The notes below the pieces were generated by a model. The model saw nothing but the letters and a program-made list of their open reading frames with translations, was not told where the DNA came from and did no database searches. A DNA stretch of 64,000 nt from contig OZ076409.1 of NCBI GenBank assembly GCA_964187785.1, positions 1,116,001 through 1,180,000 on the forward strand, in the 5' to 3' direction. The DNA comes from Amphiscolops sp. MND2022. Taxonomy: Eukaryota. The position numbers were made by a program, and so were the translations under genes. Shown here piece by piece: positions 5,807-59,666 of the stretch (position 1 is its first letter; every line of letters starts with the position of its first letter).

Positions 5807-8800
5807 CTTGTAGGTCTGAGGCCCGGCACAGCTGATCTTGCACACGTCGCAGTAGTGCAGGGGACCCCGGGGGATGTAAGCAGCCCCGGAGGAGTTCTTG
5901 TCGCCCCCACCTCCACCCCCTGGGTCCCTGGATCTCTTCTGGAAGCCAACCACGTGCGAATGGCCGCCACTGCTGCTGTTGTTGTGACCACTCCTCTCTG
6001 CACTGCCACTCCTTCTATCTCTGCGTCAGTCGTCAGAGCTCAGTGTCGTGCAATTAACACTATACCAACATTGTTAATTAACAAGCCTGTTTAAACTGTT
6101 TTTAATAGGCATGTACCGGAATTCCGGTCCGGCCGGATTTCAAAAAAGTTCCGGTTCTGGCCGGAATCATCATTGGTTCCGGCCGAAACAAAATTCTCTT
6201 AAAAACAGCATTGTTTCCAAAATGTTTTAAATTGTTTCATAAATTGATACAATTGACTAAAACAATTTCAGATTATGGTGAAGAGATAAAAGTTTTTCGC
6301 CAGTTTGTGGAAGAAGTCTGCTTCTTTTTTCTTCATATATGTTTCCGAATTCGGAGAACAGCCTTTCTGAATAAACAGATGACAGAGGTGATGTCAGAAA
6401 TTTCTTCGCAACTTTTTTCATAGAACGTAAATGTAGGATAGCACAATCAAAGTTCCGGTCCGGTTCCGGCCGGAACTGAAAAACGCATTCCGGTACATCC
6501 CTAGCTTAACACCAGTTTTTTAACAAGGTTATCAGAATGTTGAAAATTCCATGGGTTCTAGTCAAAAACTGAAGTGTTTCAGATGACGAGGGTCGTGGTG
6601 TACGAACTGCAAAAACGAAATGGTCAACAATGCTGGAATGATGGAAAGCCATTTTATTGCTTGCTCTAAAAAACTGGTTTATGTACCGCCAAATGAACAA
6701 AAGGTGATGGAATTACTTTGCGATAACTTAATTCCATCACTTTTTGTTCATTTGGCGGTACATAAACCAGTTTTTTTAGAGCAAGCATTTGTTTTTGATA
6801 TTTTTAACATAATTTACATGTTTTTTATTTTAACTGTTAAAAATATTTTAAACTAACAACTTAACAGCCCTGCTAACTACTGCACTAAGTTTATTCTAAC
6901 GTTATTTTAGTGTTAAGGGTGAATCGTTAACAAAGCATTTCGTAATACGAGCGAGAGAAATATTTCTCTCAGCCTTTCTTTAGTCTAATTTCTCAGTCAA
7001 AAGATCAATTCACGCACGATTTGCAGAAATTTTGAATGTTTTCGTCGGCATGAATATGCACAAAGCTCAACTACTAATCGATTAGCACCTCAGCAAAGTT
7101 TTGAAACATATTTTCGGAAAAAAATGACAAAAATGAGCCGTAAAATTTTGACTTTTTTGGACAAGTTTCGAACCTTTCGCTGACATAAGTATATTGATAA
7201 AGGATTTTAGACATTTTATATGAATGATCGATGATGTATTTTCGACCTACAGTAGTATTTTCTTTTTAGATGAAAGAGTAGTACGACACTGTCTGTGTCT
7301 GGAAGAGGCCGCCACAGGGATGCTGTTGGAAGCGGAGGCAGAGGAAGACGAGACAGCACTGTAGGTGCCAGAGGACGAGCCAGATGAGTTGCTGCCGGCG
7401 GGGGCATCTGGACCAGGGGTCAAGGTCTTGTTGAAACTGGATGCACTGGACGAAGAGCCACTTCTGTGACCAGCAGCACCACACAAACATACCCAGTGGA
7501 TCATCCACTCACAATTCTCTGAATTCTGTGTGTGTGTCTTGCTATTTTCATACGACCCTTATACACCGTTTCCCATTTAGATGAACAAAATTTCAAGTTG
7601 AATGAATTCACCAATAAGATGTAATCGTTCCACTTTTCTGTCATCGCTGATTGGTGTCAATTTAAATAAATTTCATTTTAGATGAATCTGCGAGTGGCGA
7701 TAGAACTCAATACGCAACAAAATTTCAATTTAATTGACTGAAATTCCATTTTAGATGAAATAATCACCAATTCTCAATAACTCCTTCTTTCGCTGAGAGT
7801 AAGAATTTGCTGCGCTTACCTTAGGCAACTGCTGCTTAATTCTCTGGCTTTCATTTTATTCAATTAAAATGACAATTTGGAATGACTCTGTTTTAATTGG
7901 CTGCCGAGTTTTGTTAGCATTCTTGTTTATTCAAATAAAATTAGCTTTCGTTCATCTAAATTGGAATTGTGATAGCGGTTTAGTATCATTTCACCCCACG
8001 TTCATTTCACCCCATGTCATTTCACCCTAGGTTCATTTTACCCCAGGTTCATTTCACCCCAGGTTCATTTCACCCCACGTTCATTTCACCCCACTTTAAA
8101 TTATCAAATGCGTCTCAGATTAATTACTAAAGCCACCCAATTTCACCAATTTCAATCTTAGCGCTAATAGAAAAGCGTCTTGAATCTAATTACCAATTAG
8201 ATAAGCAAACGATGCTTTCTATGTGAACCACAAATTCGAAACCGAATAGTTTCATTTATCGGAATTGTAATACTTCTGAAAAAGGCGCTGAATAAAATCA
8301 TTTTTCTTCTGTCAATCGGATGTTGCGAATCTTCAGCGAAAAATTTCTTATTCGGTGTTTCTACGGCAAAAAAATCCTACAGGTCAGAAACTGACAATCA
8401 AATCAAAGCTGACTCAAAGACTGTAGGCATCAAAATTTAATTGCTAATTGGTTAATTAAGGCGAGACGTTTTTGTATAATTACAATATGGTGTGAAGTGA
8501 AAATGAGGTGAAATGAACGTGGGGTGAAATGATTGTGGGGTGAAATGAATGTGGGGTGAAATGAATGTGGGGTGAAATGAACGTGGGGTGAAATGAATGT
8601 GGGGTGAAATGAATGTGGGGTGAAATGAACGTGGGGTGAAATGAATGTGGGGTGAAATGAACGTGGGGTGAAATGAATGTGGGAGGAAATGATATGGGGT
8701 GAAGTGATATGGGTGAAATGATTTTGGGGTGAAATGAACGCACACTGTGATAGCATTGATTCATTTTAATTGTCATAGGTGGAATTAAGAAGCACGACGT

Positions 8801-11800
8801 TCAACTAAATCGAAATTTTGTTCACCTAAATTAGAAACGGTGTATTTCATACTTAAGGGGGACACATTGGAAAATTAATCCCATTTTTGCATGTTATAAA
8901 TTTCCACTCAAAAGGTAACACCGTCCAAAACATTCAACGATTAGGCACCAATTTTCATCTCATTGCCAACTGGCTGCAAGCTTTGTGCCGTAGCAAGGCC
9001 AAATCTGAATCAAATTGACCCAATTCGTCATGCGAGGCGCAAAATTTAATAAACGGTTGATTTCGTATTTGTGTTAGCTGAGAACTGCGAACTCTAAATT
9101 TTATGCTCATACCATTCAAAAGTTGTTCGATGGGATTTAAGACAAAAATAGGCCCCTCCGGGGCTCAGTACTATTTCTGCCTTAATCTTTTTTTTTGAAA
9201 CAAAAAAATCATTAATAAAAGAATCATATCTGGAATACCAATACACTCTTGTTTAATGATTATTTAGCGCACAATTACATGTAATCACTGTACAAGTTTA
9301 CACTGCCTTTAATTTTTCTCGGACTAAAGAAGATATAACTACTAAGCGTAGACGAAGTTTCGCATTCGCATTTGAATGCAGGCGAAGCTCTCAACGAACG
9401 AATAATTAACACTCATTCGCTTCATCTCAATAACTCGGAGCAACGAAAGCACAATTACGAACATTCGCTCGCTTCATCTCAATGACGTCAGCATACGAAT
9501 GGATAATTACCACTCGCTCGTTCCATCGCACTAGAATTGAATTGTCTTCGGCAGCTCTCTCGCTTACACTCACTGCCGAACAAAATATCTGAATTATTCA
9601 GATCGTCCGAAAAATTGTTCTGAAAAAAAAGTAGACGTTTCCAGATTTCAATAATATTCCTGCTAAAGCAGAAATATTAATAAAATGTTTCACTGGAGTT
9701 TCAAACAAGCCGGTAACGGCATAAGTCGGCGCCATATCTAAGGCTCAAAAATAGCAAAAGGACTTCAAAGTGTCAAGTATTCTCTTCTACAGTACCCGAA
9801 AAACTAAAAAGTTGGACCGAACTGGCGCGCTAAAAGGGGAGACCCTTTCGGATTTTTTACCATTCATTCTGTTGCAAAATATCAAAAAAATGAAGGGGGA
9901 CCCTTTGGCTAAAAAATTCAAAAAAATCTCACAATGCTGAAAAAACAGAGACCCTTTAGTCTCGCCCGGTATTGTATGTTGCGCTGATAAAAAGGGTCAA
10001 CTCCTTTGCTCCTTTGGTTAAGTTCCTTGGGCCAAATGGTTCAATTTGACACATAAAATTTCGTAGAACTTTGTAGAACTATTGTGGTCACTACAGGTGT
10101 ATCGAAAAAAAATACTGACGAAAAGCCATGACTATAGTCGACTCTTTATGAAGAAAAGCGCCGACTAAAAACGAAGGGCGGAAAGTTTGTTTTTTTTTTT
10201 GGGGGGGGGGGGTGTTGTTTGAGAACTGGTTGGGTTTTGAGTAGTGAATTAGGTGTGTGTGTGTGGTGCCTGTTGTAGCGATCGCCTCCTCCTGCTCGGG
10301 AGCCGGAGTTGCTGCCTCGGGAGAAAGAGGCAGTGCCACTGTGCTCTGACGACGACGACGACGACTTGTGATGGAAGCTGCGACTGGAGGAGCTGTTGTT
10401 GCCGCCAGAGCCACTGCCACTCGAGGACCCAGACCCAGTCGCCGTAATTGTCGCAATCGCATTCGCACTTTTGTATGCTGAAACCACCATCAAGTGTTAC
10501 TCACCATTCACGTTGACTCACTTGTCTGTTTGGAAACTACCAAAAAAGCATTCCAAAGCCGCCGCCGCCACTATTTTGCTGGATGATTTAATGTTATAAA
10601 TTGTGAAACAGAAGTCCTTGTATCATACTCCTTATAATCAATCCACTCTTTCATCGATGCACTCGTCCAACACAACAACATCATCCACTAGAAAGAGGCT
10701 ACACTGAGGATGTGACAATGAGACAACACACCCCATCATACAAAACAACTCAACAGTTTTGAGAAACCTAAACCACATAGTTTTTAATGAGGTTTCATTG
10801 CATGTGAAAGCATTCTAAAAATTCACTTGCAGTTGCAGGCAACTTTTATAGCAGTCGCAAGACTTCAACTTGAAGACTGTTTTTCGCTGCTGGTGATTCC
10901 AATGGCCTAAAAATCTTCACAAGAGAAGAGCAGAGAGGTTTATTTCCCCAATTCCGCGGGGTGGGCGACTCCGAATAAGCAGCACTTCTGATTTTCTAAG
11001 TCGGCGCTCTTTCGGATACTAAAAAGATTCTCCCCAAAAAGATTCTCACACAGTCAAAGCGAATAAGTACTTGTGTGAACAATCCAAGCAACAGTGAAAC
11101 ACAGAGGCGAAGCGGTGCTTCGCAACACATGACGAAGACAACGATTTTAATATGCGTATATATATTATTTTAATCGCATGCGTATATATTCAACAGTTCA
11201 ACTTTGTTCAATAACGTCCCTATGGCACAGTGGTCAACACTCATGCCGTGCAATCGGGAGGCTGCAGGTTCGAATCTCTCAGGGGTTTTGGCTTTTGTCT
11301 AAAAGGCGCTCATTATGAAGTTGACTATTGTGGAAAAAAAAACTTTCTTAGCTGGACTGCAATGCACATTGACTTCGTCATGTGCAAAAATAACTTTTGT
11401 GTTTTTCATTCATATCTGCACGAGCAAGCTAGCAGTAAAAAACGATGCTTTTTAGACAGTTACAGTCAAACTCGGGTAAAAGAAACTCAGAGGGTGGTAA
11501 GAAAAGTGTTCCTTTTATCCATAGTTTCTTTTATAAGTTGTCCTATTAGAATCGTAGAATGTTTGTCTTGTGTAAAAGCGGAGGAGTGAAAACGTCTCTT
11601 ATATCCAAATGTTTCTTTTATCCGAATTCGACTGTATTAAGTGTTATTGTCGTCAAGTGTGAACTTGTCAAAGGATAGGGTTTGAGAGCAAGACTAACAG
11701 GAAGAGGAGCCGCCACTTCTGGAACTGTTGTACTGGTCGCCTGGCTGGTAGCCCACAGTGCCCCCGCCCCCGTAGCCAGAAGAGGACCCCCCAGAGGAGG

Positions 11801-14800
11801 AGGTAGCACCCACAGTCGGCTGCTGAGTCATCCCTGCTGCAGCCAGGTTCGTGGCAGCCCTGTCACCACATTCACCGGGTTGGGGGAATTGATAATTGAT
11901 AATAAGATCGTTATACAGACAACTGCAGTTAATACAGTCAACAGCAGTTCTTTAAACAGTAGCAGTAACTTGATGCTGTTTTTATTCTACTTCCTTTTTT
12001 GTATTTGTATGATTGCTCACTTTTTCAAACAGGGTTCGCATGTTTGAAACATGCCTTGTTTTAAACGCGTTTTAAACATGTTTTAAACAGTGTTTTAAAC
12101 ATAACGAAAACCTTCATTCTGCTCAATTGTTTTTCTTTTTTTTCAGATTGGACATGAGTACTCCAGTCACAACCACTGGTCGATCTGGTTTTGATCCCAA
12201 GTTCGGCAGACTTAGAACGCATATTCAGTAGCTTGGGGTTCGTCCACGATGAGACACGAAATCGACTATCCATTGAAAAAGCCAACAAACTTGCATTCTG
12301 TCTTCGATTGTTGCAGTTCATGTACTTATGTCGTTTAGTGTTAGAAGTATTTATGTGATTTATTTAGAGTTTTAAACATGTTTTAAACAAAAAAATTTTA
12401 TGTTTTAAACGTTTTAAACACACGATTTTTTCCAAATCTTGTTTTTTTTCCGAACCCTGTTTTCAAATTGATTCCTCTTGATTGAAAAGGAGTTATAGCT
12501 TATCTATCAACCACTGCAGAAGTATGTCTCACATAAACTAAATAGTAAATGGACGGAAATGAAAACTTACCACAGTCAACTCCGGATAATTCGCATCTTC
12601 GGTTAATTCGTCTGTATCTGAGACCCTTATCTCGCGACGACCAAAGTATTATCATCCACTTATTTCGTATTTCTCATTATTCGTACCATTTCATCCGGTC
12701 CCTAACCATACGAATTAGCCGGATACGAATTATCCTGATACCAATTAACCGGAGTTGACTGTAGTAAGTTTTAATTTCCATTCATTTACCATTTAGTTTA
12801 TGTGAGATATACTTCTGCAATGGGTGGTCGATACAAAACCCGTGACTCCTTTTCAATCAAGAGGAATCAATTTGCGAAAGTGAGCAATCATAGAAAAAAG
12901 GAAGTAGAATAAGAACAGCATCAAATTACTGCTACACTTACCGTTTCGAGAACTTTGTTACCTGAAGGTTTTGGGAAACGCAAAAACTTAAAAGGTCAAA
13001 AATTTCCCCATACATGTCATCAGTGCTGAAATTTTGACGAAAACTGCAAAAAAGCTTGAATTTCATATTTCAGCGAAATTGGCAAATTGAAATAGCGGTT
13101 TAGCGATTAGCCGGAAAAAATTAGCGATGTCAAAACCCTGTTTAAGTATATTTGGAATGAAGTCAGTGCAGTTTCACATGATTAATAGCCAACCCACCAA
13201 CCCGGTGTAGGCAGCGGCATACTGAGCGGGGTAAGAAGCGAAGGGCATGAGGGGTGATGCGGTCATGAACCCGAAGGCGGCTGCGGGGGGCATGGGCATG
13301 GCAAAGGCGGCTTGTGGGGTGCCAAGACCACCCACGGCTGCACTTTGGGCACCGGTCGCTGTCTGCTGTTGGGGCTGAAGCACCTGCTGCAGCGTCCACG
13401 TACAGTGCATTGACCTGACCTGACCTGACCTGACTTGACCTTCCATCCAATCAATCTACCCACCCTCTCAACTCAACCAGGTAGCGACAGTCCGAAAAGA
13501 AGAGAGTTTGGAATAACCAACAATCAGAATTCTCGAACTGAAGATATCCAAATAGAGACACTGACCGTGAATTTCATATCAAACACCTCAACCACGAAAG
13601 AGTACACGAAGGAGAAACACACGCAGAAACGAAACCGCAAGTGAGATGTAACGCAAAGTGTCCAAGGAACGTTTTGCCTTGGAGTTCTAATCCGGAAGGA
13701 ACAGAGCCTCTGACACCAAAGATTTGATATTTGAACGCGGCATAGTCACGCCAATCAAACCCAGTGGATGCAGCGGTTGCAAATTACCAGAGAGCTCGGG
13801 CTTGGAACAATATTTGAATTTATTTCGAAAAATTGTTAGGGTATAACAGAATTGCGAATTTTCAATGCATTTGTTTGGTAATATACTTTATTTCACAAAG
13901 CGATGTATTAAAAGGATTATTTAACTACGAAATAATACACCGTGGAATTTCTTAGACATAAATACTGCATCGAGAACTGATGCATCGACATCATGGAACG
14001 CCGTGAGAATCTTTTCTGTAGCGGGATCTTTTCTGTTAACCCACCCCCCCCCCCACAGTAAGCGCGGAAATTTTAATTCCCCACCACTATCAGCGATGAT
14101 TTTCAGTTGCAGTTAGAGTTATAAAATACTGCAATTTGATTAATTTGATTGGTTGTTACTATTAATTCAATGATGATTTCATTTGACCGCTTACCTGGGG
14201 GGAATTAAATTGGTAGGGGAAAATATCAACAGAAAATTAACAGGAAATATCCCTGTAGCGTCCACCTTCACGTAGGTCAAACAATCCATTGTCAATTGCA
14301 TCGATCGAGTGATGTTGTAACCGTCTATATATAAGACCAGTTGTCGAACAGATCAGTCGTAAGGTATTTGCTGACAATGGATCTCTAATAACTGTTATAT
14401 GGTGTAGAATGAGTTAGAAACCTAACAGTTTTCAGTTCTAATTTTTTTCAGTTCTTTCAGGTTTGAGATTGGCTAACTTAAATGTGGCAAACCATAGTTT
14501 AACTAGTTTGCTGTCACAACATACAGTAACTTGAGCTGTGTATTTTATATATATCGTATTCGTGGTATTACGAACAAGGTATTGAACTTCAACTAGAAGT
14601 CATCAACGTAATGTCTTTCAGAAGGTTTTTTGGAAACAAATAGTCACAGAAATGGTCTAGAGCAACTCAACTGAAACATCGTCAAAAACAATGTCAATTT
14701 TTGTGCCGAATAATTTGTGTAATTATACACAAGTCTTCAGTGATGGATTCTATTTTTAGAGAGGAAACAAGCTTTTCTGGCACAAGAGCTAATAATCCGA

Positions 14801-17800
14801 ATCTACAATTACATCGATAACATGAAAGCTCATTACAGTAAACCCTCAATTATCCGCCACCATCGGTCCAGCACGAATTATGGCGGATAAGTGAGAGTGG
14901 CGGTTAATCAAGGGAGCTTAGACACGAGGGTTTTAGCGAAATGTCCCCGTAGATTTATGGCGGTTGACCAAAGGTGGCGGATAATCGAGTGGCGGATAAT
15001 CGAGGGTTTACTGTATTACCAAACTGTCGTATTGAGTATTGGAGGAAATGGTCTTGACGAGTGGAAGGGAATACGAACTTTAGCTGCAGACGAGGTTACT
15101 TTTTTGTAACTTACACATGCAACATTTTGTTACATGCAATCATTAAAACAGTCAACCAAAAGCTTTTTACATTCCTAGATCTTAAGGTCGGAATACTGTT
15201 GGGAACGTATTTCATCGCATAACGTGAGCAATTTTTCAAAGGATAAGATTGTTTCTAACAGTCAACATTTCTTCACGTAAAAGATGCAATGCCGAGGCAA
15301 CTATAAATCGTCAAAATGCAAAATGTTTTGTAACAAAGTGACTTGACCGTTTCAAGTAGACGATGTATATCAGTGTCATTTATTGACATCCTTTTTTGTT
15401 ATAGGTCGCTAATCACATTTTTAATTCAATAGCTATGTTCACTGATAAAACAAGCCATGTTCATGCAAAATGGGGTAATTATGCGTTGAAACAGTTCGTT
15501 CGACAGCATCAAGGCACTGAACAACATTTTGTCAGTCAATGCTACTAGTGCGAAAATGCCATTTGACTTTAATGTACTCGGAGTTACGAAAAGCTCCGAC
15601 AGAAATGTTAGTGATGATCAAGTGCACCTAACTAACAACGGAGTAACAAATTTCACATCTGTTCCACTCAGACATTATCGAAGTGTTTGTTTAAAAAAGA
15701 ATATGGAAATATTCATACATTATTTTCAATAAATTCGAAAGTCACCTTAATTTTGGTAAAAAGTGATTGTTTAGCTAGTACTGATCGAATGTAGAAAACC
15801 ATTTTTACTGGTTTTCATTCTTCCTGTTGTGACTAGCTTTGTCTTAAGGGAGAGCAACTTGTTTTCGTGAAATGAAACTAGTATTTTTGTAGATTTAGAG
15901 CAACTGGCTTGCGAACGCTTGTCCCTGACTACATCACTGTGACTTCCAAGGACCTTTTGGCAGTGAAGGGACCTTGGTTTACTGCTGTGCATAATGAGTC
16001 TACTGGAGGCAAGTATTGCAAGACTAGCATCCGGGCGCAAGCTTTGGATCATTTCCACTAATCTTCGCAATTCGTGTTGAATATTACAGACCTCAACAGC
16101 GTGTATTGTTTTTTAATGTTCCCTGAGAGCATGAATCGGAACGAATGGAAATTGTGTAGAGAGCTGCGTTATCATTTGGCCGAACCTGGTGATGTGCTAA
16201 TTTAGCCTCCTTTCCGATGGAATGTCAAGGTGGTCCCTTGTGCATGGATGGGAAGGCGTTGACATCAGCCAGCGATTTGAAAAGGGGGAGTGGAGTTTTT
16301 GGAAGATTTAGCTTGAGCTCAGGTCAGGAATATGTAGAGGAGTCGATACAAAGGTATGGATTGGACAAATTGATTGATCGCATCCGGCAGAGATTGGAAA
16401 CGAGCCTTGAAAAAATACAGAAGTCTCGCGTCAAGCTCCGCGTCTGGTGTCCAATCAGTTGATTCGCCAAACAATGCTGTGTCATCTACTCTGAAGTGGT
16501 TCTCTGAGAGTGTTGTATTAGATCATCTTGAAACATTCAAATTATTGGATATGACTTGTCAAGCAGCTTTGAAAATCGTAATAAACGTAACGAAAACCAT
16601 GTCGAAGAAAGAAGTCGCGGCTCTCTAACATTAAACGAGCAACGACTTCTTCAATCGTAGTTGCTCCTGAACTACCTTATCCCGACTCGGAAGACGAAGA
16701 TGTTTACTCTTCTCCTTTCCGGTAGTAAGAGCACTTCGATAAAGTATCCTAAATCAATAAAATTATTGATCGTTGAATAGCGGAAGATTCCCTTGTGTTA
16801 TTCGATGAGTGTCATTCAGCAGTGATATAATGAGGATAAGCGTCATTTATTGAATGATACCCAGCCTTCTGCTCAAGATTGTAAAATGATGAAATCCGGA
16901 GATGATAGTAACGGTGAATGAGTAACAAAAGCTGGTAAGTTGCATTTCAGAAATTGAAGAAGGATCAGATAGGGATTGCCTGCTCGTTCTGATCGAACCA
17001 AAGCATCAGAATTTCGAAATAACAAATAAAATAAACGCAAAAGCTGATAAATCTACTTCTGTTTCTCGTTTCTGTTCTATTAGTCTGTTTTTCTCTCAGA
17101 ATTGATTATAATTTTTTTATTGTCACTTTCGCTGTTCTGGTGGGCTTCAATTTCTACATCGGTAATCATGTGGGACAGGTAAGTGATTGCTTGAATGCAA
17201 TGACAGAGGAATCCAGGTAAGAAAATACACAATTGAAGAATTGAAGGAAAAAAAAAAGATTTCGGAGTCAAAAGGGGGTAAGTCCTTGAAATGTCGAAAT
17301 TTCGATAAATCCAAAAATTCGTTCAAACATTTTGTAGTCAAGCTTCTTTGGGTGTCGACAGAGACCATGCTAAAACTGTATTGAAACACAACGTAAATCG
17401 AGAAGTATTTTGTCGCCTACTGAGGAATTGTGCTACTTATGACACATGTGAACAACAAAAAACTAAAAAATCTCGAAAAAACTGTAGAAATCAAAAAATC
17501 CCGCTCAACCATTTTGTGTGTAAATCGATGAGTTTTGTTTCGTCAATTCTTGCTTTCCCGATAGGCTCAAGAAATTGTGAAATTTTATTTTTCTCGAATA
17601 ACGTTAGAAATTCAGAAATTGGCTTCAACCAATTGATGTAGGATCATAACAGGTATATGCACGCGCAATTTCATTGCTTTGGAGTAACTAGCGTGAAATC
17701 GAGAAAAAATCGACTTCCTGGAGATATCGGGCTTGGAAATTTATGATGAATTGGAAATTGCTGCTGGTTCAATTGGTTATTTGGCCATTGAATCGACTGC

Positions 17801-20800
17801 GATGCACCCACAGGAAGCTTTCTGAGCTTTACTATGGGACGTATGATATGACCAGATGCTGTTCCGAGTTTCGCAACTTTATTTTTATCGTCGTTTCCAG
17901 AGTACAACTGCTCGATTCTCGCCAATTTCCATCGCAAAGGGGGCATGTTGTCCTCTGCTGACAAAACCAGGTGGCCAGCTGGAAACTAGGACCCGATTGA
18001 AGCCATCAATTGCGTATTTGTAGGGTCACTATGTAATCACGATACCATGCCTTCCAAAAGTGACCTCCTCGATGCTTTAAGTAGTTTGAATCTTTGTCCG
18101 ATATCAAGTTTATCATCAGATTGACGAGCGTGCAGAGTTGCACAGAAGAAAATGAGCTAGAGTATTCGGCTAAAGGTCATTCGGTTCGCTGGACATGCTG
18201 ACAGTGGTCGAGAATTCAGAATTCCTTCTATTTGAATTACTCGTGTGTTGAGCTCTTCGAAAGTTTCTGCGCAAATGACGCTTCATGCGCTCCACTGCCG
18301 CTTCTCATAATCTTCCAAAATGCGGTGTCCTTCGAGGAATCATTTTTCATTCGATCATTTCTTGGGATATGTAACTTCCGATTGAATTCTGTTCTTTTCC
18401 AAAACCATGTCGAAGAAAGAAGTCGCGGCTAACATTAAACGAGCAACGACTTCTTCAATCGTAGTTGCTCCTGAACTACCTTATCCCGACTCGGAAGACG
18501 AAGATGTTTACTCTTCTCCTTTCCGGTAGTAAGAGCACTTCGATAAAGTATCCTAAATCAATAAAATTATTGATCGTTGAATAGCGGAAGATTCCCTTGT
18601 GTTATTCGATGAGTGTCATTCAGCAGTGATATAATGAGGATAAGCGTCATTTATTGAATGATACCCAGCCTTCTGCTCAAGATTGTAAAATGATGAAATC
18701 CGGAGATGATAGTAACGGTGAATGAGTAACAAAAGCTGGTAAGTTGCATTTCAGAAATTGAAGAAGGATCAGATAGGGATTGCCTGCTCGTTCTGATCGA
18801 ACCAAAGCATCAGAATTTCGAAATAACAAATAAAATAAACGCAAAAGCTGATAAATCTACTTCTGTTTCTCGTTTCTGTTCTATTAGTCTGTTTTTCTCT
18901 CAGAATTGATTATAATTTTTTTATTGTCACTTTCGCTGTTCTGGTGGGCTTCAATTTCTACATCGGTAATCATGTGGGACAGGTAAGTGATTGCTTGAAT
19001 GCAATGACAGAGGAATCCAGGTAAGAAAATACACAATTGAAGAATTGAAGGAAAAAAAAGATTTCGGAGTCAAAAGGGGGTAAGTCCTTGAAATGTCGAA
19101 ATTTCGATAAATCCAAAAATTCGTTCAAACATTTTGTAGTCAAGCTTCTTTGGGTGTCGACAGAGACCATGCTAAAACTGTATTGAAACACAACGTAAAT
19201 CGAGAAGTATTTTGTCGCCTACTGAGGAATTGTGCTACTTATGACACATGTGAACAACAAAAAACTAAAAATCTCGAAAAAACTGTAGAAATCAAAAAAT
19301 CCCGCTCAACCATTTTGTGTGTAAATCGATGATTTTTGTTTCGTCAATTCTTGCTTTCCCGATAGGCTCAAGAAATTGTGAAATTTTATTTTTCTCGAAT
19401 AACGTTAGAAATTCAGAAATTGGCTTCAACCAATTGATGTAGGATCATAACAGGTATATGCACGCGCAATTTCATTGCTTTGGAGTAACTAGCGTGAAAT
19501 CGAGAAAAAATCGACTTCCTGGAGATATCGGGCTTGGAAATTTATGATGAATTGGAAATTGCTGCTGGTTCAATTGGTTATTTGGCCATTGAATCGGCTG
19601 CGATGCACCCACAGGAAGCTTTCTGAGCTTTACTATGGGACGTATGATATGACCAGATGCTGTTCCGAGTTTCGCAACTTTATTTTTATCGTCGTTTCCA
19701 GAGTACAACTGCTCGATTCTCGCCAATTTCCATCGCAAAGGGGGCATGTTGTCCTCTGCTGACAAAACCAGGTGGCCAGCTGGAAACTAGGACCCGATTG
19801 AAGCCATCAATTGCGTATTTTAGGGTCACTATGTAATCACGATACCATGCCTTCGAAAAGTGACCTCTTCGATGCTTTAAGTAGTTTGAATCTTTGTCCG
19901 ATATCAAGTTTATCATCAGATTGACGAGCGTGCAGAGTTGCACAGAAGAAAATGAGCTAGAGTATTCGGCTAAAGGTCATTCGGTTCGCTGGACATGCTG
20001 ACAGTGGTCGAGAATTCAGAATTCCTTCTATTTGAATTACTCGTGTGTTGAGCTCTTCGAAAGTTTCTGCGCAAATGACGCTTCATGCGCTCCACTGCCG
20101 CTTCTCATAATCTTCCAAAATGCGGTGTCCTTCGAGGAATCATTTTTCATTCGATCATTTCTTGGGATATGTAACTTCCGATTGAATTCTGTTCTTTTCC
20201 AAAACCATGTCGAAGAAAGAAGTCGCGGCTAACATTAAACGAGCAACGACTTCTTCAATCGTAGTTGCTCCTGAACTACCTTATCCCGACTCGGAAGACG
20301 AAGATGTTTACTCTTCTCCTTTCCGGTAGTAAGAGCACTTCGATAAAGTATCCTAAATCAATAAAATTATTGATCGTTGAATAGCGGAAGATTCCCTTGT
20401 GTTATTCGATGAGTGTCATTCAGCAGTGATATAATGAGGATAAGCGTCATTTATTGAATGATACCCAGCCTTCTGCTCAAGATTGTAAAATGATGAAATC
20501 CGGAGATGATAGTAACGGTGAATGAGTAACAAAAGCTGGTAAGTTGCATTTCAGAAATTGAAGAAGGATCAGATAGGGATTGCCTGCTCGTTCTGATCGA
20601 ACCAAAGCATCAGAATTTCGAAATAACAAATAAAATAAACGCAAAAGCTGATAAATCTACTTCTGTTTCTCGTTTCTGTTCTATTAGTCTGTTTTTCTCT
20701 CAGAATTGATTATAATTTTTTTATTGTCACTTTCGCTGTTCTGGTGGGCTTCAATTTCTACATCGGTAATCATGTGGGACAGGTAAGTGATTGCTTGAAT

Positions 20801-36800: not shown

Positions 36801-39800
36801 GCTCCATTCTGTTGTAGTCTCTGTGCAATCTCAGAACTTCCGTTTTCAGACGACTATAAAGCGCGTCTTTGAATGACCCCTTGAAAACACTACTGCTGCT
36901 GCTGCTATGTTGGGTGTCAACGCTATTTGCACTAGAGATTCCGTCGCTAATCAACTTCATTTCGTTTCCCGCGTCAGAGAGCAAGACTACAAAAGACCTG
37001 CCGAAGTTTTCAGACAGATCGAAAACACAGCTTTGGTTGGCGGCAGCTACACTGAGAAGCTGTTTACTCAAGAGAAACTCACTGGTCGTGGTGAAATAAC
37101 ACTTCGAAGTTGAAACAGGCACTTTCAGTTTGAGCCACCCTGAGTGCGAAACGTTATCCCACGTTTGAGCAAGCAGAAGCTTGGTTAAACCCAATGACGC
37201 AACATTTCTATCAAAGGTGTAAACTCCAGAGAGCAAAGCGTCTACGCTGCAAGGTCCACTGCAGGCATTTATTGTGGCGCAGTTGATTTTATGACAAGCA
37301 TCGTGTTCTTTATCTACCACGCAGCAATTCTTGAAACCATCATTCTCGGCTGAGAAGTTCTCGACAACGTTCCAAAAACAATTGCTATCAGCCAAACCGG
37401 TCAGCGACAAAAGCAGTTCGCTGAAAAACTCGTCTTTCTGGTTCAAAACCTCGCAGCTGTTGATCATCCACTCCAGAAGTTTGAGCGACAGTTGCAGCGA
37501 ATAGGAGCAAACCTTGTTGCTGTAGCCGTAATCGAGAGTCGCGTTGCTCAGCAAGTTGAATTGCATCAAAGCATCGCGACACATTTCATTGGACAGTCTG
37601 AGATTGCTGCTGGGTTTGTGGGCGGCGGGCACGGCGGGAATTTGCTGGAGGAAGGTTGAGAATATTCTAGAATGACTCTGGCCCAACAGCGTGACTCGGT
37701 AGCGGACCTCGTTGAGAAACTGCATGTTGGGGTCCGAGAGGGCGCAAGAGTCTATCTTGATCTTGTCAGACTGGGCGGACCAAGAAGTGCGCGAACAGTC
37801 CACCTTGGGGTCATCTTCGTCCTCGCCGCCACACTGACCACAGAGCCAGTAGCCGTACGCAGTCATGCTCCTGTTCCACGCTGCCCCGTGTGGGCATCTG
37901 AACAAACAAACAAACATGCAAACGGTTGTTTTAGGTACAGAAACGTCCTGAAATATTGCATCTCCATTGCTCAAAATAGCAAATTTCAACCACAGATATC
38001 TTGAAGACTGCTAGGAATAAGGAAAACTGTCAAAAGTTTTCAAAAAGTGTTTCAAAAGTGTTTGAGTTAGAAATTGTAAATTTCGGCAAAATGTAGTCAA
38101 TTGTGCATTTTTTCTCAAATTTCAATATTTTTAATTTTGAGCTACTCAATTTTCAGGATAACTCGAATTTCAATTATACTTTCTTGAAATTAGCAAACAT
38201 CAAACCAAAATTTTTGTAAACTAGATGAAATTCTGAGAAACTTTTGCAGCAGGTAAATTCTGTATTTGTGAGTTTACGAGATAAACTGGTAGCCTAGCAC
38301 CAATTATGTCTTCATGAAAGTAAGCAGTGATGTGAATCAACCAATCAGCGCAGGGACGGAAATCAGAGTACCTGAAGACGGCGAATGCCGAGGTGGGTGC
38401 CGAGTAGATGGCCAGGGGTCCCAGCAGGCGGTGGGAGGCGTTGAAGCTGGCACACAGGTCCTGTCTGCAGGCGGGCGGCCGGTTCTCTGGCGTGTACAGG
38501 AACGCGCCCCAGTTCCAGTCGTGCCACCGCCCGTGCTCACTGTTCACATGACGTCATCAGTCAGTATTGTGCTTGCTTGCTTCTCAACCAATTCACAACA
38601 AATGCTCTTCTTCAAAACCAAATCACATTCAAAATCCAGACAAATTATGCAAATCACATGGTTATTATTTCGCACCATTTTGTGTCAAACAGAAGTGTTC
38701 GGATTAAAGTTGTGTACTCCTGTTTGTGCGAAAAGTTTTGGACAATGATTTTTCCAGAATTATCGGAAACCAGCAAAAATTCGGGGAAAATCTTTTAGGC
38801 AAAAGTTTCTTGAAATTCTTGCTAGAACCTTTTGGATGATCTTTTTTTTTCAAATTGAGAAATAGTAAGAGAGGTATCTTTGTCGGAAAGGTTTCACGTT
38901 TGCGGAGAAAAATCTCGAACATCTTAAGTCGGCGCCCCACTTTAGGCTGGAAAAGCACTGTCCATATGCCAAAAAGCTGTTTTTACGATAAGTTTGAACA
39001 AGTCGGGAACGTTCCAAGTCGGCGTCATATCCAAGGCTCAAAAATATTCAATGAACAACTATTGTGAAATTTTTCAATTATCACACAGTGCCGAAAAATA
39101 CCCGAAAGGGGTTCCCCGAAACTCGAAAAAGCTTTTTTTCTGTAATGAAAACATCAGAAAAAACTAACTTGCCTTTGAAAAAATTGGTTAAAAAAGTCGC
39201 ATATTGCCGAAAAACCCAAAGAAAGACCCTTTAGGCTCATAAAACGCTTTTTACAAACCGAAAGCCTCAAAAACAATTCAAGGGGTACCCTTTGAAAGAA
39301 TTCAAAAATTTTCCGAAAAAAGCCGCATAGTGCCAAAAAAACCCAAAGGGGGACCCTTTGGTCTTTCCTCTACTTTTGGAAGCATAACAAAATTTTGTGG
39401 TTTAGTACGAGACTCGAACCCACGCTCTCCTGCTTCTCAGACCCCAGAAAATTAGCCGGCCAAATAGTTGAACAAATGAACAAAAAAGTGGACGGAACGC
39501 GTTGAACTGACGAAAAAAACTAGCCATTGTAAGAGTCGTGCATTTTCTTCGAAAACGCCAACTTAAAATCTAAAGACTGCCGAAAAATAATCAAAGGGAC
39601 CGTTTGGACAAAAAAGACTAAAAATTTTCGAGACCAAAGAGGGAACCTTTTGGTCAATGATGTTTTATATTTTATTTTATATAATTAAAAATGTGAAAAA
39701 ACCAAGGGAGAGCCCCTTGGCTTATTCGGGAACCCTAGAGCGAAAAGTCAGTGAAATTGGACCACTTGTCAGTTAGTTAAAAGTCGGGCACACTTGTTGA

Positions 39801-41080
39801 AAAATGCGCAGACTAATGAACGTTCAAGCTATTTTTTGCTAATTTTTTCCTCGAAAAAATGTTTGCCAGTTCGAAACTATTTTCTGTTGACACAAATCCG
39901 TTGGGTTTTCCGCTTCGATTCTGTTTTCAAAAACGCCCAGGGCACACGAAATGCCGGAGCTCAAGTAGTTCTGCGGCGCCTTGTTATTGAATAGGTAGAA
40001 ATGAATCCATTTCTGCCGGTTACATTACATTTCGTCCAATACACTTTCAACCTATGCAATTTCAACCGCTCACAATTTCAACCTGTTGCATTTTCAACCG
40101 TCCGCCATTTCGACCTAAACTAATTTTGGCTTTTAGTCTTTTAGTTGAGCTATTTTTTAGTACGATCATTACTAATGAATCAAACAGCCTCAATTAATGG
40201 TAACTATTCATGAAGAAGCCAAAACGTATCAAAACTAGCGTAAGAATTCGCACAGTTGAATTTATAAATGTATGAAAGTTGGAACCACCAAAATAATTGT
40301 TAACTAATTAGGATTCATTAGCCAAAATTAGTTTAGATCGAAATGGCGGACAGTTGAAAATGCAATAGGTTGAAATTGCAGTGCATAGGATGAAATGTCC
40401 TGACACCATTTCTGCCATCCAACATTCACCCCAAGTGAAAACAAGACGCCCGCTAAGCACCGGGATACTTTCCGCCTTCTTAGTTGACTATTTTAGAAGA
40501 TTCTTCTCCAAATTCTTCTATTTTAGTTACCAGTGACTAAATGCGTCACTATGAGGAGTTTACTAGAATGAGCATATGCAGGGATGAGATTTTGAGCATA
40601 CGTCATTCTGGAGCGAGTATGCGTCAACAATAGTCAAGTAACTACAAAAATAGTCAAGTAACTAAAAATAGTCAAGTAACTATAAAAATAGTCAAGTAGT
40701 TTATGGAGATCGTGGAGATTTGGCAGAATTTGTAAAACCAAACGCAACATAGATTATGATTTTCCTGCTCCATTATATGTGGGCGGAAAATAGTACTATA
40801 GTCTTTCCATATACATGTATAAAGCAGCACAGCACTGGGCTAGGTGTTGGTTGTAGTGGATGGGGTCGGAGAAGTGCTTGGGACTCTTCTCTCCAGGGTA
40901 GTTGCGGGAGGCGTTCTTCATGCGGATGCTGCCCTGCATGGTGTAGACTATGACCACGTAGAGCAGCATGCCGGCCGCGATGAGGTTGACGCAGTTGACT
41001 GCCGCGTCTATCAGGTGGTTCCTCAGCATCTTGCTGTGGTACGACGAGTCCAGTTTCAGAAGCCCGAACTTCCACGGCAT
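30888..41080 (-). CDS. Adhesion/secretin-class (family B2-like) 7TM GPCR
   Basis: Phase-consistent exons 41080(ATG; may extend to 41103 and an exon at ~41628-41700)-40836, 38539-38372, 37897-36672, 35731-35411, 34576-34401, 32851-32537, 31088-30888. Cys-rich HRM-like segment; TM1-ICL1 YGLFPKLRTERTPTKILLTLC; TM3 YLTLVTLTWCSIEAFNLY; TM4 GLGLPAAIV; TM7 QGLYVFVVYC...RKQW. Confidence 0.85.
32875..33379. mobile_element. piggyBac-like MITE
   Basis: TTAA TSD at 32871-32874 and 33380-33383; imperfect TIR CCTTAAATTGGCCA / TGGTCAAGTTAAGG. Confidence 0.7.
40018..40407. mobile_element. Mutator-like MITE with TTTCAACC subterminal repeats
   Basis: GGT...ACC termini, inverted arms, 9-bp TSD ATTTCTGCC at 40009-40017 and 40408-40416. 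Confidence 0.8.
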
Positions 41081-41121
41081 CCTTCCGGTACCTCTCTTTA
41101 CTACTGTGCTGATGTTGTCTT

Positions 41122-44500: not shown

Positions 44501-45982
44501 CGAAAAATTATACGAAATGCACAATTTGTTATACGAATTACATGTTATACGAAGGTGCCGCCATTATTATACGAGTTATACGGAGAATCGTTTTTCAGCC
44601 AATTTGCGTCGATTTCACCATAACTAAAAGACGTTTCAGGAAATTATGAACTTTTGGTGATGAATTTCAAATGAAATGCATCCTAAAATGGTAATAGGCT
44701 ATACGGTATTCGGAGAGGGGGGTATTGCAATCCCCTTTGTTGAAGCAATTAACACTTTCTGACAGAAAAATGATCCAAAATTGTGCTCCATGCCTTTATA
44801 CGACATAAGATGGGCCAATTATACGAATATACGATATACGAAACCTTGGATAATAGAATTACACGTTATAAGAGGAACTCAGTATACGACAATACACCGA
44901 TTAGGACTTCGAATGAAACTGACTTCTACTGAACAATAGAAAAACTAAGAGCTCGAAGGGCCGGCCCCAAATAGCTGCAGAATAAATAGTCTCAGAAAGA
45001 AATGGAAAGATATTTTCAACTTTCAAGCCAAGACAGTTTTTCTCGAGTTTGGAAAAAGCACATCTCGAAGACCACCATTTGGCAAATTCTGTTGGCTAAT
45101 CCAGTTAACGGGACACTATAGTATCATCTGTAAGAGTGAAATAGAAGTCGTTTTTGCTGTTAAGTATAAAGAGAGGTCTCTAAACAGGGTTGCAATGCCT
45201 AAAACACCTGAATGTACAAAACACCATTTCCATCTGTTTAAAATGTCCCATGAACAATAAATACAACAAACACCCTTAATAATTCGGCTTCAATTTTGAA
45301 TTCGGCTCATCTCCGAAAAATACGACAGAGGCTGCTGCTAAAATCTTTTCAAATTTCAGACACAATGTGGAATCTGTTGCAAGAGCTAGGACCCTTGTGT
45401 CTCTCACTTGTGGCTCAAAGATCAACAGCACTTAAGTGGAAATGGTCAGCACTTAGCGGTCATTTCAAAATCATCTCTGAGACCATGTTGAAGCGGCAAA
45501 ACTTGAAAAACTGATCTGAATGGAGATTTCTGCACTGTTTTTGATCGCTTCAAACGTGTGTTCTATTGATGTGTTTAAATCACGACATTTAACCAGAGCC
45601 GCATGTGCGGCAAAGGACTCGGAAACGGATTAAAAGATTGAAAAACAAATCACCTACTTTATTGTCATTTGCTCATTTTTCGAATAATTCTGCCTATATT
45701 TCTAAGATGCCAGTCATACGATTTTGATGCCATTGCGCACACAGGAGCACCTTTGGGTGTAGAATGACTGTGCTAAATTTTATAAAAATCGAATGAACAG
45801 TTTTTGAGAAGCTCTGGGAGAAACTTTTGGGAGAAAAAGGTACAGTTGCATAGGTAGTCGAACATTTTCCCGACTCCTAAAAAAAACACTTTTTGCAACC
45901 CTGAGTAGCAACTTCCAGAGACCTGTCCTGAGACGGGTTCCAAACTCGGATAGACCAACAATGGGGGGGGGGTTAGCACCTG

Positions 45983-48900
45983 TCATGATTTACTGCAGGA
46001 ACCCACGTGACGCGAGTGTTCGGCCTCATTCAAGCTCTTCCGACCGCAACTGGGGCACACGAAGCGTCTGTGGGTGGCGTGCAGGTGCTGCCAGAGGGAC
46101 CTTCGGCTGATGAAGTGCTCTGTGCAGAATCTGCAGCGAAACGCGAACCCTTCCAACGACTTCTTCTCGCAGTTCCTACACAAGTACCGTCCCGTCCCCG
46201 TCCAGCTAAACTAGTTCTTAGTCGACGAACTATCTACGTGCACCAACTGTCATGGTGCTGCTTTTTGTCTTTTTTAGTCGGCGCCTTTTCCCTTAAGGAA
46301 AAAAGTCCGACTATTACAGTGGATAGTTTTTTATTCTTCAGTTCACTCTGAATGGTTCACTTTTTTGTTCATTTGTTCAACTTTTTAGCCGAGATATTTT
46401 AGTTCGGATATAACGTTTTCAAAGTTAAAGTTCGGATGTAACGGTTTCAAAGTTCGGATATAACGTTTTCATTTTTTGCCCCAAAATTTCACAAAATATG
46501 TTGAGCCTTAGATATAGCGCCGACTTTAGACGTTCCCGTCTTAATTTTCAATCCGGTCGAATTGACCAAAATAGTTCTATCTACCGTCCAAGTTCCACAG
46601 AGGGCCGAAAGGTACAAACGTACCTTTTTGGTTTCTCGCTTTATTTTGATTGAAAAGATCTGAGACCAAAGGGTCCGCTTTGGGGTTTTCAGCACTGCAA
46701 CGTTGATCTATCTAGAAGTTTTTCAAATTCTCAAAAGAGCCACATTAGGTTTCTTCGATATTTTCATTGAGAAAGCCATTCTGAACATTTGGCGGCGCTG
46801 AGAATGAGAATTTCAAGAAAAAACCATCTGAGCATATTCAAGGCTTTTTATTTGCGTCATAGGTGGTATTGAATAATTTTAAAATACCTCCTAACCGACT
46901 ACAACTTGGAGCTGTGATTCAAGTTTACAGCATTCAGTACTTCAGATCTGAATCATGCTTTTTGGAAGCATTTTTTCTGAACTATTAGCAGCAAAGATTA
47001 AACAAGCCGGCGCCACGCTAGAAGCTCAAAAAGAGCAGTCTTCCGAACATGCTGAAGGATAACAATCGAGAGACTCTCGCCAACTTCAAAGTAGCGAAAG
47101 ATACCCGAAAGATTCGAAATACACCTTTCCCTAATTCAAAATATTTCAAAAAAAGCTTAAGAAATTCTTAGAGAAGTTTTTTTCGACAAAAGTAGCCCAG
47201 TGTCAAAAACCATAAATGGGGACCATTTGGTCTCCCCTCTACCTTTGTAAACGTAGAAAAACTGTTCAGATCAACGTGGCGAGACAACAAAGGAGAGAGC
47301 TTTAGATTTATAGAATCTGCCAGTTCGCTCGTCTTCAAAACGTCATTACTATAAATTGTGTTTTCTAACGTGAGCGCCGACTGTTTTTCAAGCGAACAAA
47401 CATTTAGGGAATTTTTAGCTTTTCAATTTTCCAAGAAAGTTCAGATGCTACAAACCTTATGTTTGCGTCGTTGACTTTTTGAAAGAGCTCCACCTTTTGA
47501 GTATAAAATTCGAGTATGGTAAATATTTAACAGAAAGACGCAGCTGATATATTCATTTACTGCTATACCACTTCATTTAAAAAAGGGCCCTGCGAGGCAC
47601 AGTATTATTTCTGCTTTTAAGCTTTCATGTTCAATAATCGAAGCATAGTTTAAGCATTAGTCATTTATATAGCGCACAATTAATCACTCTACAAGTTTAC
47701 ACCGCCTTTAATTCTTCTCGGAGTCAAGAAAACAAAACTATTAAGCGTAGACGAACTTCTCAAAATGACGCCAGCGTATGAATGCATAATTCACACTCGC
47801 TCGTTCCATCGCACGAGAAACGAATTTTTGTCGGCAGCTCGAGAAATTTAAATCTCACGCTTATACTCACTGTGGAACCAAACATCTGAATTTTTCAGTA
47901 GATACTCGATATCACGACAAGAATTGTTCTGAAAAAACTTGAATTCTTGAGATTTCAAAAATACTCCTGCTATCGCAAAAGTAATAACTAAAATTCAGAG
48001 CTAAGATTTTCTTCCGAAATGCGCCGCTTAAGCGTTTGCGCGGGCGTCATAAGCGCAACAAGCGATAAGCGCGTTTTTTGGTAAAACATAATTCACTTCA
48101 CATCGTTCTTATCAAAAATAGGCCCCTCCGGGGCTCAGTACTATTTCTGCTTTAATTTTTTTTTGAAACAAAAAAAATCATTGATAAAAGAATCATATCT
48201 GGAATACCAATACACTCTTGTTTAATCATTATTTAGCGCACAATTACATGTAATCACTGTACAAGTTTACACCGCCTTTAATTCTTCTCGGAGTCAAGAA
48301 AACAAAACTATTAAGCGTAGACGAACTTCTCAAAATGACGCCAGCGTATGAATGCATAATTCACACTCGCTCGTTCCATCGCACGAGAAACGAATTTTTG
48401 TCGGCAGCTCGAGAAATTTAAATCTCACGCTTATACTCACTGTCGAACCAAACATCTGAATTTTTCAGTAGGTACTCGAAATAACGACAAAAATTGAACT
48501 GAAAAAAGTTGAATAATTCAGATTTGAATATTATTCCTGCTATCGCAGAAATAATAAAAACATGGGAAAAATGACAAAGTACATGTACATTCGAATTGGC
48601 CTAAATCTATCGACTTTGTTTAACGCGGTCATCATATTAAACTGGACAGACGGAAGACGGTACCTGCAGCCCATCTTGACGTGCTGTCCTACTGACACCG
48701 AGTATCGGTTCTCGTCCTCGCTGACCAGTGACGTCAGAGCGAAAGAGTTGGTTTTATTCAAGTCTTCTGGCGTGTACTCTTGCACCGGGGATGGACTCCT
48801 TCTCTGTATAAGACAGCCTTTGTTTCTGCTCCCACTTTCCACTTTTTTCCCTGCCCTGTCCTTACTTTTCACTCCCATGCTTCTGCTTTTCTTTGCATTT

Positions 48901-59469: not shown

Positions 59470-59666
59470 TTCGAAGAGGTATCAATGCAAACAATCACAT
59501 CCCCATTGCAATCTGAAACAGAACTATAGTTAAGAAGAAGAGATGTATTAACCTTCGGGATGTGGCAGTACAAATGACTTTCTATCATTGATTCCAGAAC
59601 AAAGTAAATAGTATTTAAAAAATTGACACAGAAGAAAGGCAAGTGAGGATTGCAGAGTTATAATAA

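Follow-up and report, generated by a model that had tools for sequence, protein, structure and literature searches.

The window analyzed in this study is a 64,000-nt stretch of Amphiscolops sp. MND2022 DNA (C1:1116001-1180000), and the genome searched was the 1.07-Gb assembly of 1929 contigs. The stretch harbors a 7tm_2 receptor gene (secretin/adhesion-type), BEL/Pao-type retroelement domains (DUF1759 and DUF5641), a single-exon ATG9 gene and DnaJ genes. Together with multi-exon PRP8 and myosin genes at other loci, this content marks the genome as an animal's, and its PRP8 is too divergent from the vertebrate protein for a vertebrate. The subject of the analysis is the introns of three genes, all on the minus strand, for which a first-pass annotation had claimed that the 5' end of each intron is complementary to a private tract just upstream of its own 3' AG. 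Such complementarity was found in a subset of these introns; it is specific to each intron's own partner and goes together with weak splice signals. The helices that these arms could form may help to bring the two ends of the introns together.

Genes and splice junctions of the window

Gene 1 (27970 to below 5700) has low-complexity, GC-rich exons and ends, within the window, in half of a zf-met-type finger that stays under the Pfam cut-off. A DZF_N exon is found 21.5 kb downstream of this finger on the same strand, and from the combination of zf-met and DZF_N domains gene 1 is presumed to be ZFR-like. Gene 2 (41080 to 30891) encodes the 7tm_2 receptor, and gene 3 (54165 to 45986) encodes a zinc-finger protein with a C2H2-like finger at its end. 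A comparison of the window with Rfam gave no match.

Related proteins served to place the junctions of genes 2 and 3. When the large exon of gene 2 was used as a query, a sole protein was found, P0001 (874 aa, on a 3.3-kb contig), which is 81-95% identical exon by exon, and mapping of P0001 on the window fixed six introns, designated A to F. No paralogues of gene 2 were found in the genome. For gene 3, the protein P0123 (from a 3.1-kb contig, 45% identity) reads ...KMGCR|NCEKKSL..., which confirms the junction 48663/46176 as placed at first pass, and its alignment exposes a further upstream intron at about 53960-51104, beyond the range covered at first pass. Another candidate relative of gene 3, P0122, was rejected, as it is an unspliced open-frame call of the window itself. 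Altogether, P0001 and P0123 fix the junctions of seven introns of genes 2 and 3.

Other junctions proposed at first pass had to be moved. The donor of the intron with the arm at 35374 lies at 35410, which places this arm at +21..+37. According to P0001, the intron with the arm at 34374 has its donor at 34400, where it reads GA, and the donor of the intron with the arm at 36659 reads GG. The GG donor (intron C) follows from the P0001 residues KLRT|ERT, and the GA donor (intron E) from NEIK|ACGG. GT dinucleotides in phase occur 27 nt (GG donor) and 51 nt (GA donor) downstream, and their use would add 9 and 17 residues, respectively, that are absent from P0001; the GG and GA calls therefore hinge on the relative's protein.

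Complementarity between the intron ends

For each intron, a donor window (-10..+50) and an acceptor window (the last 60 nt) were compared by two measures, namely, the longest exact Watson-Crick run and a gapped local complementarity score (SW) with half credit for G-U pairs. The null set consisted of 2862 non-cognate pairs of donor and acceptor windows from 54 introns (11 of the window, 33 of PRP8 and 10 of myosin), with three of the PRP8 junctions only approximate. The whole sample, chosen by fetchability, comprised 58 introns: 15 test introns (13 of the window and two of a second receptor gene on contig C10) and 43 controls.

All nine of the arm pairs listed by the first-pass annotation are present on the minus strand where they had been placed, with longest exact runs (pairs 1-9) of 14, 11, 10, 9, 6, 7, 6, 12 and 8 nt. 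The claim that 9 of about 13 introns have complementary ends stood in part: six pairs are individually unusual, while pairs 4 and 5 are marginal and pair 7 is at chance level. Taken together, the 11 window introns of the null set score higher with their cognate partners than with non-cognate partners from the same window (Mann-Whitney p = 7e-5 for SW and 1e-5 for runs). The comparison of true and shuffled partners gave the same answer for these introns: the observed SW sum was reached in one of 200,000 permutations (p = 5e-6), the observed run sum in none of 200,000, and the cognate partner ranks first in its column in 7 of the 11 introns. The complementarity is specific to each intron's own partner; the permutation result therefore marks the pairing as private to each intron and not as a by-product of shared composition.

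Chance or nucleotide composition, such as the AC-rich starts and GT-rich ends known from fish, could in principle account for the pairing, inflated by the free choice of arms. This idea draws on the AC/GT-type sequence of pairs 3 and 7, and on intron D, whose acceptor region reaches SW 30.5-37 with foreign donors. It is contradicted by the within-window permutation, by exact runs of 14, 12 and 11 nt in mixed sequence, and by the non-cognate scores, which are not higher in the window introns than in the controls (16.6 vs 16.06, p = 0.09). This explanation is largely refuted and was given hardly any weight. The RNAduplex comparison of donor and acceptor suggested at first pass did not discriminate with 60-nt windows: non-cognate energies were as low as cognate ones, because large interior loops lowered the energies of the non-cognate pairs.

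Within gene 1, four of the five introns carry arms. Intron 1 (13387..27829; 14,443 nt, GT-AG, placed by phase only) contains pair 1 (27813-27829/13400-13416; run p < 0.0004, SW p = 0.0028). Its 5' arm in full (27813-27836) takes in 7 exon nt, its 3' arm (13394-13416) ends 7 nt before AG, and the 24 positions of the helix include an exact run of 14 nt, two mismatches and one gap. Intron 2 (11860..13201; 1,342 nt, GT-AG) contains pair 2 (13197-13207/11873-11883; run p = 0.0014, SW p = 0.0073), which is a perfect 11-nt match across the 5' junction with the 3' arm ending 13 nt before AG. In intron 4 (7464..10269; 2,806 nt, GC-AG by frame), pair 3 (10252-10269/7476-7493; run p = 0.0045, SW p = 0.0028) joins AC-rich and GT-rich low-complexity sequences over 18 positions, with an exact run of 10 nt. 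Pair 4 (7283-7291/6041-6049) of intron 5 (6021..7289; 1,269 nt, GT-AG) is a perfect 9-nt match, but statistically marginal (run p = 0.0175, SW p = 0.26). The segment 1-2924 of the window is a tandem segmental duplicate of 4626-7565 (99% identity, 14 mismatches in 2940), in which the last two in-window exons of gene 1 and the intron between them, with both pair 4 arms, are repeated; the duplication could be real or an assembly artefact.

The receptor gene has four introns with claimed arms. Pair 5 (40822-40837/38562-38578) of intron A (38540..40835; 2,296 nt, CA|GTGCTG...CAG) has one bulge and one mismatch, and is marginal (SW p = 0.08). Intron C (35732..36671; 940 nt, apparently GG-AG) contains pair 6 (36659-36670/35756-35766; SW p = 0.017), made of 11 bp and a bulge; it continues into the 5' exon, with 13-24 nt left between the 3' arm and AG. 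The arms of pair 7 (35374-35390/34591-34609; SW p = 0.22) in intron D (34577..35410; 834 nt, GT-AG) pair at chance level. In intron E (32852..34400; 1,549 nt, apparently GA-AG), pair 8 (34374-34385, i.e., +16..+27, with 32856-32867; run p < 0.0004, SW p = 0.028) is a perfect 12-nt match, and the 3' arm ends 4 nt before AG. The last pair belongs to gene 3. Its intron 2 (46176..48663; 2,488 nt, GT-AG) contains pair 9 (48642-48663/46184-46205; SW p = 0.0024), a helix of 8 + 6 bp with G-U pairs, a duplex energy of about -41 kcal/mol, and a 3' arm ending 3-8 nt before AG.

Within the 60-nt windows, pairing was not found in four further introns: gene 1 intron 3 (10478..11698; 1,221 nt, GTTAGT...TTTCAG; SW 15.5, p = 0.53), gene 2 intron B (37898..38371; 474 nt, GTACTC...T-rich tract...CAG), gene 2 intron F (31089..32536; 1,448 nt, GT-AG; not above chance), and gene 3 intron 1 (51104..53960; about 2,857 nt, GTAGAC...T-rich...TTAG; SW 13.5, p = 0.79).

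The GT-rich 3' region of intron D (34591-34620) is an exception to the partner specificity, as it pairs with several foreign donors. Its scores with the donors 27829, 10269 and 7289 of gene 1 range from 30.5 to 37, whereas its own donor gives 18.5. The score with the donor of the next intron, E, is 23.5; this pair flanks exon 5, and such pairing could favor back-splicing.

Errors in the gene models, mainly in gene 1, would leave some of the arms off the real splice sites and turn the weak signals into an artefact of misplaced junctions. The homologue search with the second exon of gene 1 found none, and the GC-rich, low-complexity exons of this gene are open in two or three frames. On the other hand, all five joins of gene 1 are in phase and give an open reading of 289 codons from ATG to the zf-met-like finger, the DZF_N exon follows downstream on the same strand, and the signal persists in the homology-fixed introns of genes 2 and 3, four of the seven giving SW p = 0.0024, 0.017, 0.028 and 0.08. 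Wrong models are regarded as an improbable explanation of the pairing.

The 3' arms stand near AG, as the first-pass annotation had described. In eight of the nine best helices, the 5' arm begins at -9 to +2, and thus lies over the exon-intron junction, and the 3' arm ends 3-22 nt upstream of AG, a placement seen in 25% of 1200 non-cognate best alignments. The inverted repeat enters the 5' exon in pairs 1, 2, 3, 6 and 9, and the paired introns are 0.8-14.4 kb long. Editing-complementary sequences were considered and rejected, since at most 9 exon nt are paired.

With the exon-intron junction covered in eight of nine helices, the arms could instead be regulatory masks: with the 5' splice site hidden, splicing would be delayed or prevented, so that introns are retained or other sites chosen. 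Stems in Drosophila are described as masking sites as well as bridging them (PMC2724269), and alternative in-phase GT donors are located just downstream of two of the arms. However, the pairing tracks weak acceptors as well as weak donors, the 3' arm adjoins the 3' splice site, a placement needless for a mask of the donor, and the relatives' proteins (P0001 and P0123) show the junctions in use. A masking role is therefore considered quite unlikely.

Splice signals, control introns and intron interiors

Weakness of the splice signals, which had been proposed together with the pairing, was borne out at both ends of the window introns. Compared with the 43 controls, their donors match the consensus at 4.45 vs 5.79 of 8 positions (p about 2e-4), the T content of the last 20 nt is 0.31 vs 0.48 (p about 5e-4), and the pyrimidine content before AG is 0.47 vs 0.59 (p within 2e-4 to 5e-4). 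Pairing score and pyrimidine content are inversely related over the whole sample (rho = -0.46, p = 2e-4, n = 58), and the same holds for pairing and T content among the 15 test introns (rho = -0.59, p = 0.02). The unpaired introns of the same genes carry T-rich tracts.

The donors of the paired introns read GTCCAG, GTTGGT, GCACCA, GTGTCG, GTGCTG, GGATGA, GAACGA, GTACCG and GCATGA. The donor consensus of U12-type (minor) introns is RTATCCTT, and none of these nine donors matches it. The apparent non-GT donors are GG (36671), GA (34400) and GC (10269 and C10:16628724), all on the minus strand; among the 33 PRP8 introns, there are only two GC donors. The first base is G and the last two are AG in all 13 window introns and in both C10 introns, and this invariance points to the spliceosome. 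Non-spliceosomal removal guided by paired ends, as proposed for euglenids, would agree with ends that bring the junctions together and with some non-GT starts. It is at odds with the G and AG shared by all 15 introns, since euglenid nonconventional introns are reported to have variable borders (PMC11282704), and is held to be highly improbable.

Several motifs were observed near the 3' ends. An ACAG 3' end occurs in 5 of the 13 window introns vs 2 of the 43 controls, and a T[GC]AC motif within 12 nt of AG in 4 of 13 vs none of 43, so that the 3' ends of the window introns may have a distinct acceptor consensus. GTGAGT motifs resembling strong donors lie 19-44 nt upstream of two 3' splice sites (32868-32876 and 10505-10530, both on the minus strand), although the frequency of GTRAGT donor-like motifs near the 3' ends is not significantly different (3 of 13 vs 3 of 43). 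In intron E, the donor-like motif is within the 3' arm, and the 5' arm therefore resembles the 5' end of U1.

The first-pass annotation had envisaged a system in which each intron has paired ends. This did not hold across the genome. The PRP8 gene (C4, about 88 kb) was mapped with partial PRP8 proteins from the homology search, and its 33 introns (31 GT-AG and two GC-AG, with ordinary T-rich tracts by inspection) give a cognate mean of 15.8 vs 16.1 for non-cognate pairs (Mann-Whitney p = 0.66), the longest run being 9 nt. Like PRP8, the 10 myosin introns were found to have no enrichment of pairing. SW scores of at least 24.5 were obtained for 7 of the 15 test introns vs 3 of the 43 PRP8 and myosin introns (Fisher p = 0.0016), and the arm duplexes of the window introns are stronger than those of the controls (p = 2e-4). 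Pairing of the ends is thus not a property of introns in general in this genome, and is absent from introns with strong signals.

An independent case came from a search of the genome for the 7tm_2 family, which yielded only six exons and one other usable receptor gene, on contig C10; this case owes nothing to the loci of the earlier annotation. One intron of this gene (C10:16627950-16628724, minus strand; 775 nt, GC-AG, with a poor pyrimidine tract) pairs CCAG|GCATGACCAAATA across the junction with a tract ending 16 nt before AG. The helix has 17 positions with one mismatch and one G-U pair (SW p = 0.005, about -30 kcal/mol). No pairing was seen in the neighboring intron of this gene, which has a GTGAGC donor and a T-rich tract. 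Further sources of introns were sought in vain: Pfam analysis of 48 open frames flanking PRP8 revealed one retroelement, one cyclophilin exon and no usable introns, that of 66 frames around the other receptor loci revealed a single-exon Frizzled gene and no further exons, and tblastn of P0001 on those loci gave nothing usable.

The proposal that no single transposon family accounts for the arms agrees with the genome repeat searches, which covered one intron end and five whole introns, one of them the C10 intron. In the window introns and intron end searched, the arms with the adjoining 20-85 nt match only themselves, repeats being confined to the interiors; the arms of gene 3 intron 2 lie outside repeats, and the C10 intron is single-copy over its whole 775 nt. 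Many similar copies of an intron or of its ends, as expected of introners, were not found in these searches, which score only the best candidates and could therefore miss an old low-copy family. On inspection, no target-site duplications or direct repeats flank any of the nine pairs; in intron C only, the two junctions are alike at six of seven positions. Tc1/mariner-like and RAG/Transib-like ends were considered for the three arms with CAGTG and rejected, as these are without TA or 5-bp duplications.

The interiors themselves are rich in mobile elements. A 515-bp miniature inverted-repeat transposable element (MITE; 32871-33383), presumably piggyBac-like from its TTAA ends, is inserted 19 nt upstream of a 3' splice site, where it abuts the 3' arm of intron E but does not include it. 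It has the ends TTAACCTTAACTTGG...CCAAGTTAAGGTTAA, is flanked by TTAA, and has 90-95% identical copies among thousands of candidates. The interior of intron C contains an abundant element of roughly 240 bp. In gene 1 intron 2, an inverted repeat of ~65 nt (11959-12029 vs 12871-12935) brackets about 975 bp, and the 410-bp stretch 12464-12874 is 71% identical to its own reverse complement; both are elements of the foldback type, apart from the terminal arms. Within the 14.4-kb intron, the segment 17080-23288 contains three tandem units of ~1.8 kb with DUF5641 fragments beside a DUF1759 gag-like frame, which are the remains of a BEL/Pao-type retroelement.

These observations bear on the possibility that the arms are functionless birth relics of an insert with inverted-repeat ends (a MITE, foldback element or repair filler), with splice sites improvised at the insert edges and therefore weak in signal. 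Terminal inverted repeats together with non-consensus borders are described as a signature of transposon-derived introns (PMC11282704), CAGTG starts three of the 5' arms, and the paired introns are located in fast-evolving or low-complexity gene parts and not in PRP8 or myosin. Such an origin is nevertheless unlikely in view of the missing target-site duplications, the extension of the inverted repeat into the 5' exon in five of the pairs, and the single-copy state of the arms with their neighborhood and of the C10 intron. Moreover, the introns have had time to receive several nested transposons, and neutral remnants of 9-17 nt would be expected to decay over such a period.

Genes with a single exon were encountered in the window and elsewhere in the genome. 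The ATG9 gene (56947-59481, minus strand) is an intronless single open frame of 844 codons (Pfam 1e-163). Its first ~160 codons recur about 3.2 kb on as a partial second copy (62115-62669, minus strand), and a flanking frame is duplicated as well (59667-59990 vs 62855-63178). The single-exon Frizzled gene (571 codons) is located at C3:87388485-87392018, and three full-length single-exon transporters of the SNF family were found at C7:28842917, C4:14040633 and C10:39343575. Frizzled and SNF-family transporter genes usually bear introns in animals. Here, the single-exon Frizzled and SNF-family genes sit beside multi-exon paralogues, which suggests retrocopies or heavy intron loss.

A possible role of the helices and comparison with known systems

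The explanation tentatively placed first, with slightly less than even confidence, is that the helices bridge the ends of spliceosomal introns with weak signals and aid their splicing. A subset of introns would form a private helix of ~9-24 bp between the 5' exon-intron junction and a tract 3-22 nt upstream of AG. These introns keep G at +1 and a terminal YAG, and lack a GTRAGT donor (some apparently having GC, GA or GG) and a pyrimidine tract. The helix would serve as a cis-acting bridge that joins both ends over 0.8-14 kb of transposon-filled interior, and would help or partly substitute for weak recognition by U1 and U2AF; because the donor lies inside the helix, the helix would have to open before catalysis. 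The statistics favor an association of pairing with weak signals; formation of the helices in the pre-mRNA and their promotion of splicing are inferred. The intron-specific barcodes replacing U1 and U2AF signals, as proposed at first pass, would be a step beyond these data.

Several observations weigh against this explanation. Most of the helices bury the 5' splice site, and in known cases this usually inhibits binding of U1. The gene 1 junctions are backed by the reading frame, whose support is moderate because the exons open in several frames, and the GG and GA donors of introns C and E are apparent calls that depend on the protein of a relative. The sample outside the window is tiny, with one of two introns paired. 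Minimum-energy folds of whole introns (up to 1.6 kb) did not separate paired introns from controls: five paired introns have 14, 4, 18, 14 and 27 bridging pairs, four unpaired window introns have 12, 5, 0 and 16, and 4 of 14 PRP8 introns have 14 or more.

A stronger version, which is conceivable but on the unlikely side, is that these introns make up a second, structure-defined class. In most young introns of non-housekeeping genes, the private terminal helix, and not U1 and U2AF, would match donor to acceptor; the donor would be free to degenerate to G-N, the pyrimidine tract to vanish, and the interior to fill with transposons.

It is a long-standing question how the right donor and acceptor meet in long introns filled with repeats, and structure-assisted pairing is considered a rarity among animals (less than 1% of introns in flies, 0.09-2.3% in fish). 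If about half of the introns of ordinary genes did rely on private helices, with GA, GG and GC donors and missing pyrimidine tracts really tolerated, the genome would provide a natural system for the replacement of U1 and U2AF by RNA structure. It would show how splice signals decay once structure takes over, and annotation pipelines that expect GT-AG and a pyrimidine tract would miss such introns.

Intramolecular pairing was reportedly found in yeast, in 1995 (cited in PMC4691745), to bring the reactive sites of a spliceosomal intron effectively closer together. The yeast stems are said to occupy the stretch between a consensus donor and a consensus branch site, whereas here the helix takes in the donor itself and the signals are poor.

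In Drosophila, Raker et al. 2009 (PMC2724269) describe 202 introns genome-wide with conserved unique box pairs of 9 nt or more near donor and acceptor. According to the same source, the boxes are enriched in long introns and those with weak acceptors, with no donor weakness seen; their average distance is 60 nt to the donor and 80 nt to the acceptor, the search design having left out the splice sites, and they were proposed, and shown in minigenes, to join or mask sites. In both cases, intron-specific pairs are located near the two ends, act or would act over long distances, and accompany weak acceptors. Complementary stretches of 9 nt or more, neither farther than 150 nt from its splice site, occur in 8 of the 13 window introns and one of the two C10 introns, and the enrichment in long introns with weak acceptors is likewise seen here (paired introns of 0.8-14.4 kb; correlation with pyrimidine content as given above). 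Unlike in Drosophila, the pairing takes in roughly every second intron across four genes; the 5' junction falls within the helix, the other arm stops 3-22 nt short of AG, and the donor signals are poor. The Drosophila boxes were defined by cross-species conservation, whereas the arms described here are known from one genome.

In teleosts and lamprey, introns bridged by (AC)m-(GT)n make up 0.09-2.29% of introns (Lin et al. 2016, PMC4691745) and are reported not to need U2AF2. The window introns resemble them in a bridging helix between opposite intron boundaries and in a poor pyrimidine tract. The first-pass analogy with this class applies to the polarity of pairs 3 and 7, which have an AC-rich 5' end and a GT-rich 3' end. 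It does not extend to the other seven helices, which, unlike the one generic dinucleotide repeat of fish, are unique mixed sequences; AC/GT is found only in pair 3 and, loosely, in pair 7.

The analogy with euglenid nonconventional introns, also drawn at first pass, is apt for paired ends that join the junctions and have sequences private to each intron (PMC11282704). It fails for the borders: euglenid introns, which are said to be excised as circles independently of the spliceosome, are described as lacking conserved terminal dinucleotides, while G at +1 and AG are invariant here and the euglenid CAG/CTG positions were not seen. Transposon-derived introns, such as introners and the MITE-derived introns of Fritillaria borealis (PMC11282704; Soo et al. 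2026, PMC13326754), share terminal inverted repeats, some non-GT starts and a location in lineage-specific gene parts, but the window introns have neither target-site duplications nor a multi-copy family, and their arms enter the exon. The Fritillaria termini are given as AG/AC or AG/AT after a YAY triplet (PMC11282704, PMC13326754), whereas all introns here are G...AG. G-N...AG introns are reported for larvacean tunicates (PMC13326754), to which nothing links this genome.

Thus, bridging of intron ends is a mechanism already in print for Drosophila (PMC2724269) and fish (PMC4691745). New here would be its local density, the unique mixed sequences of the helices, their coverage of the 5' junction, and the link to GA, GG and GC donors.

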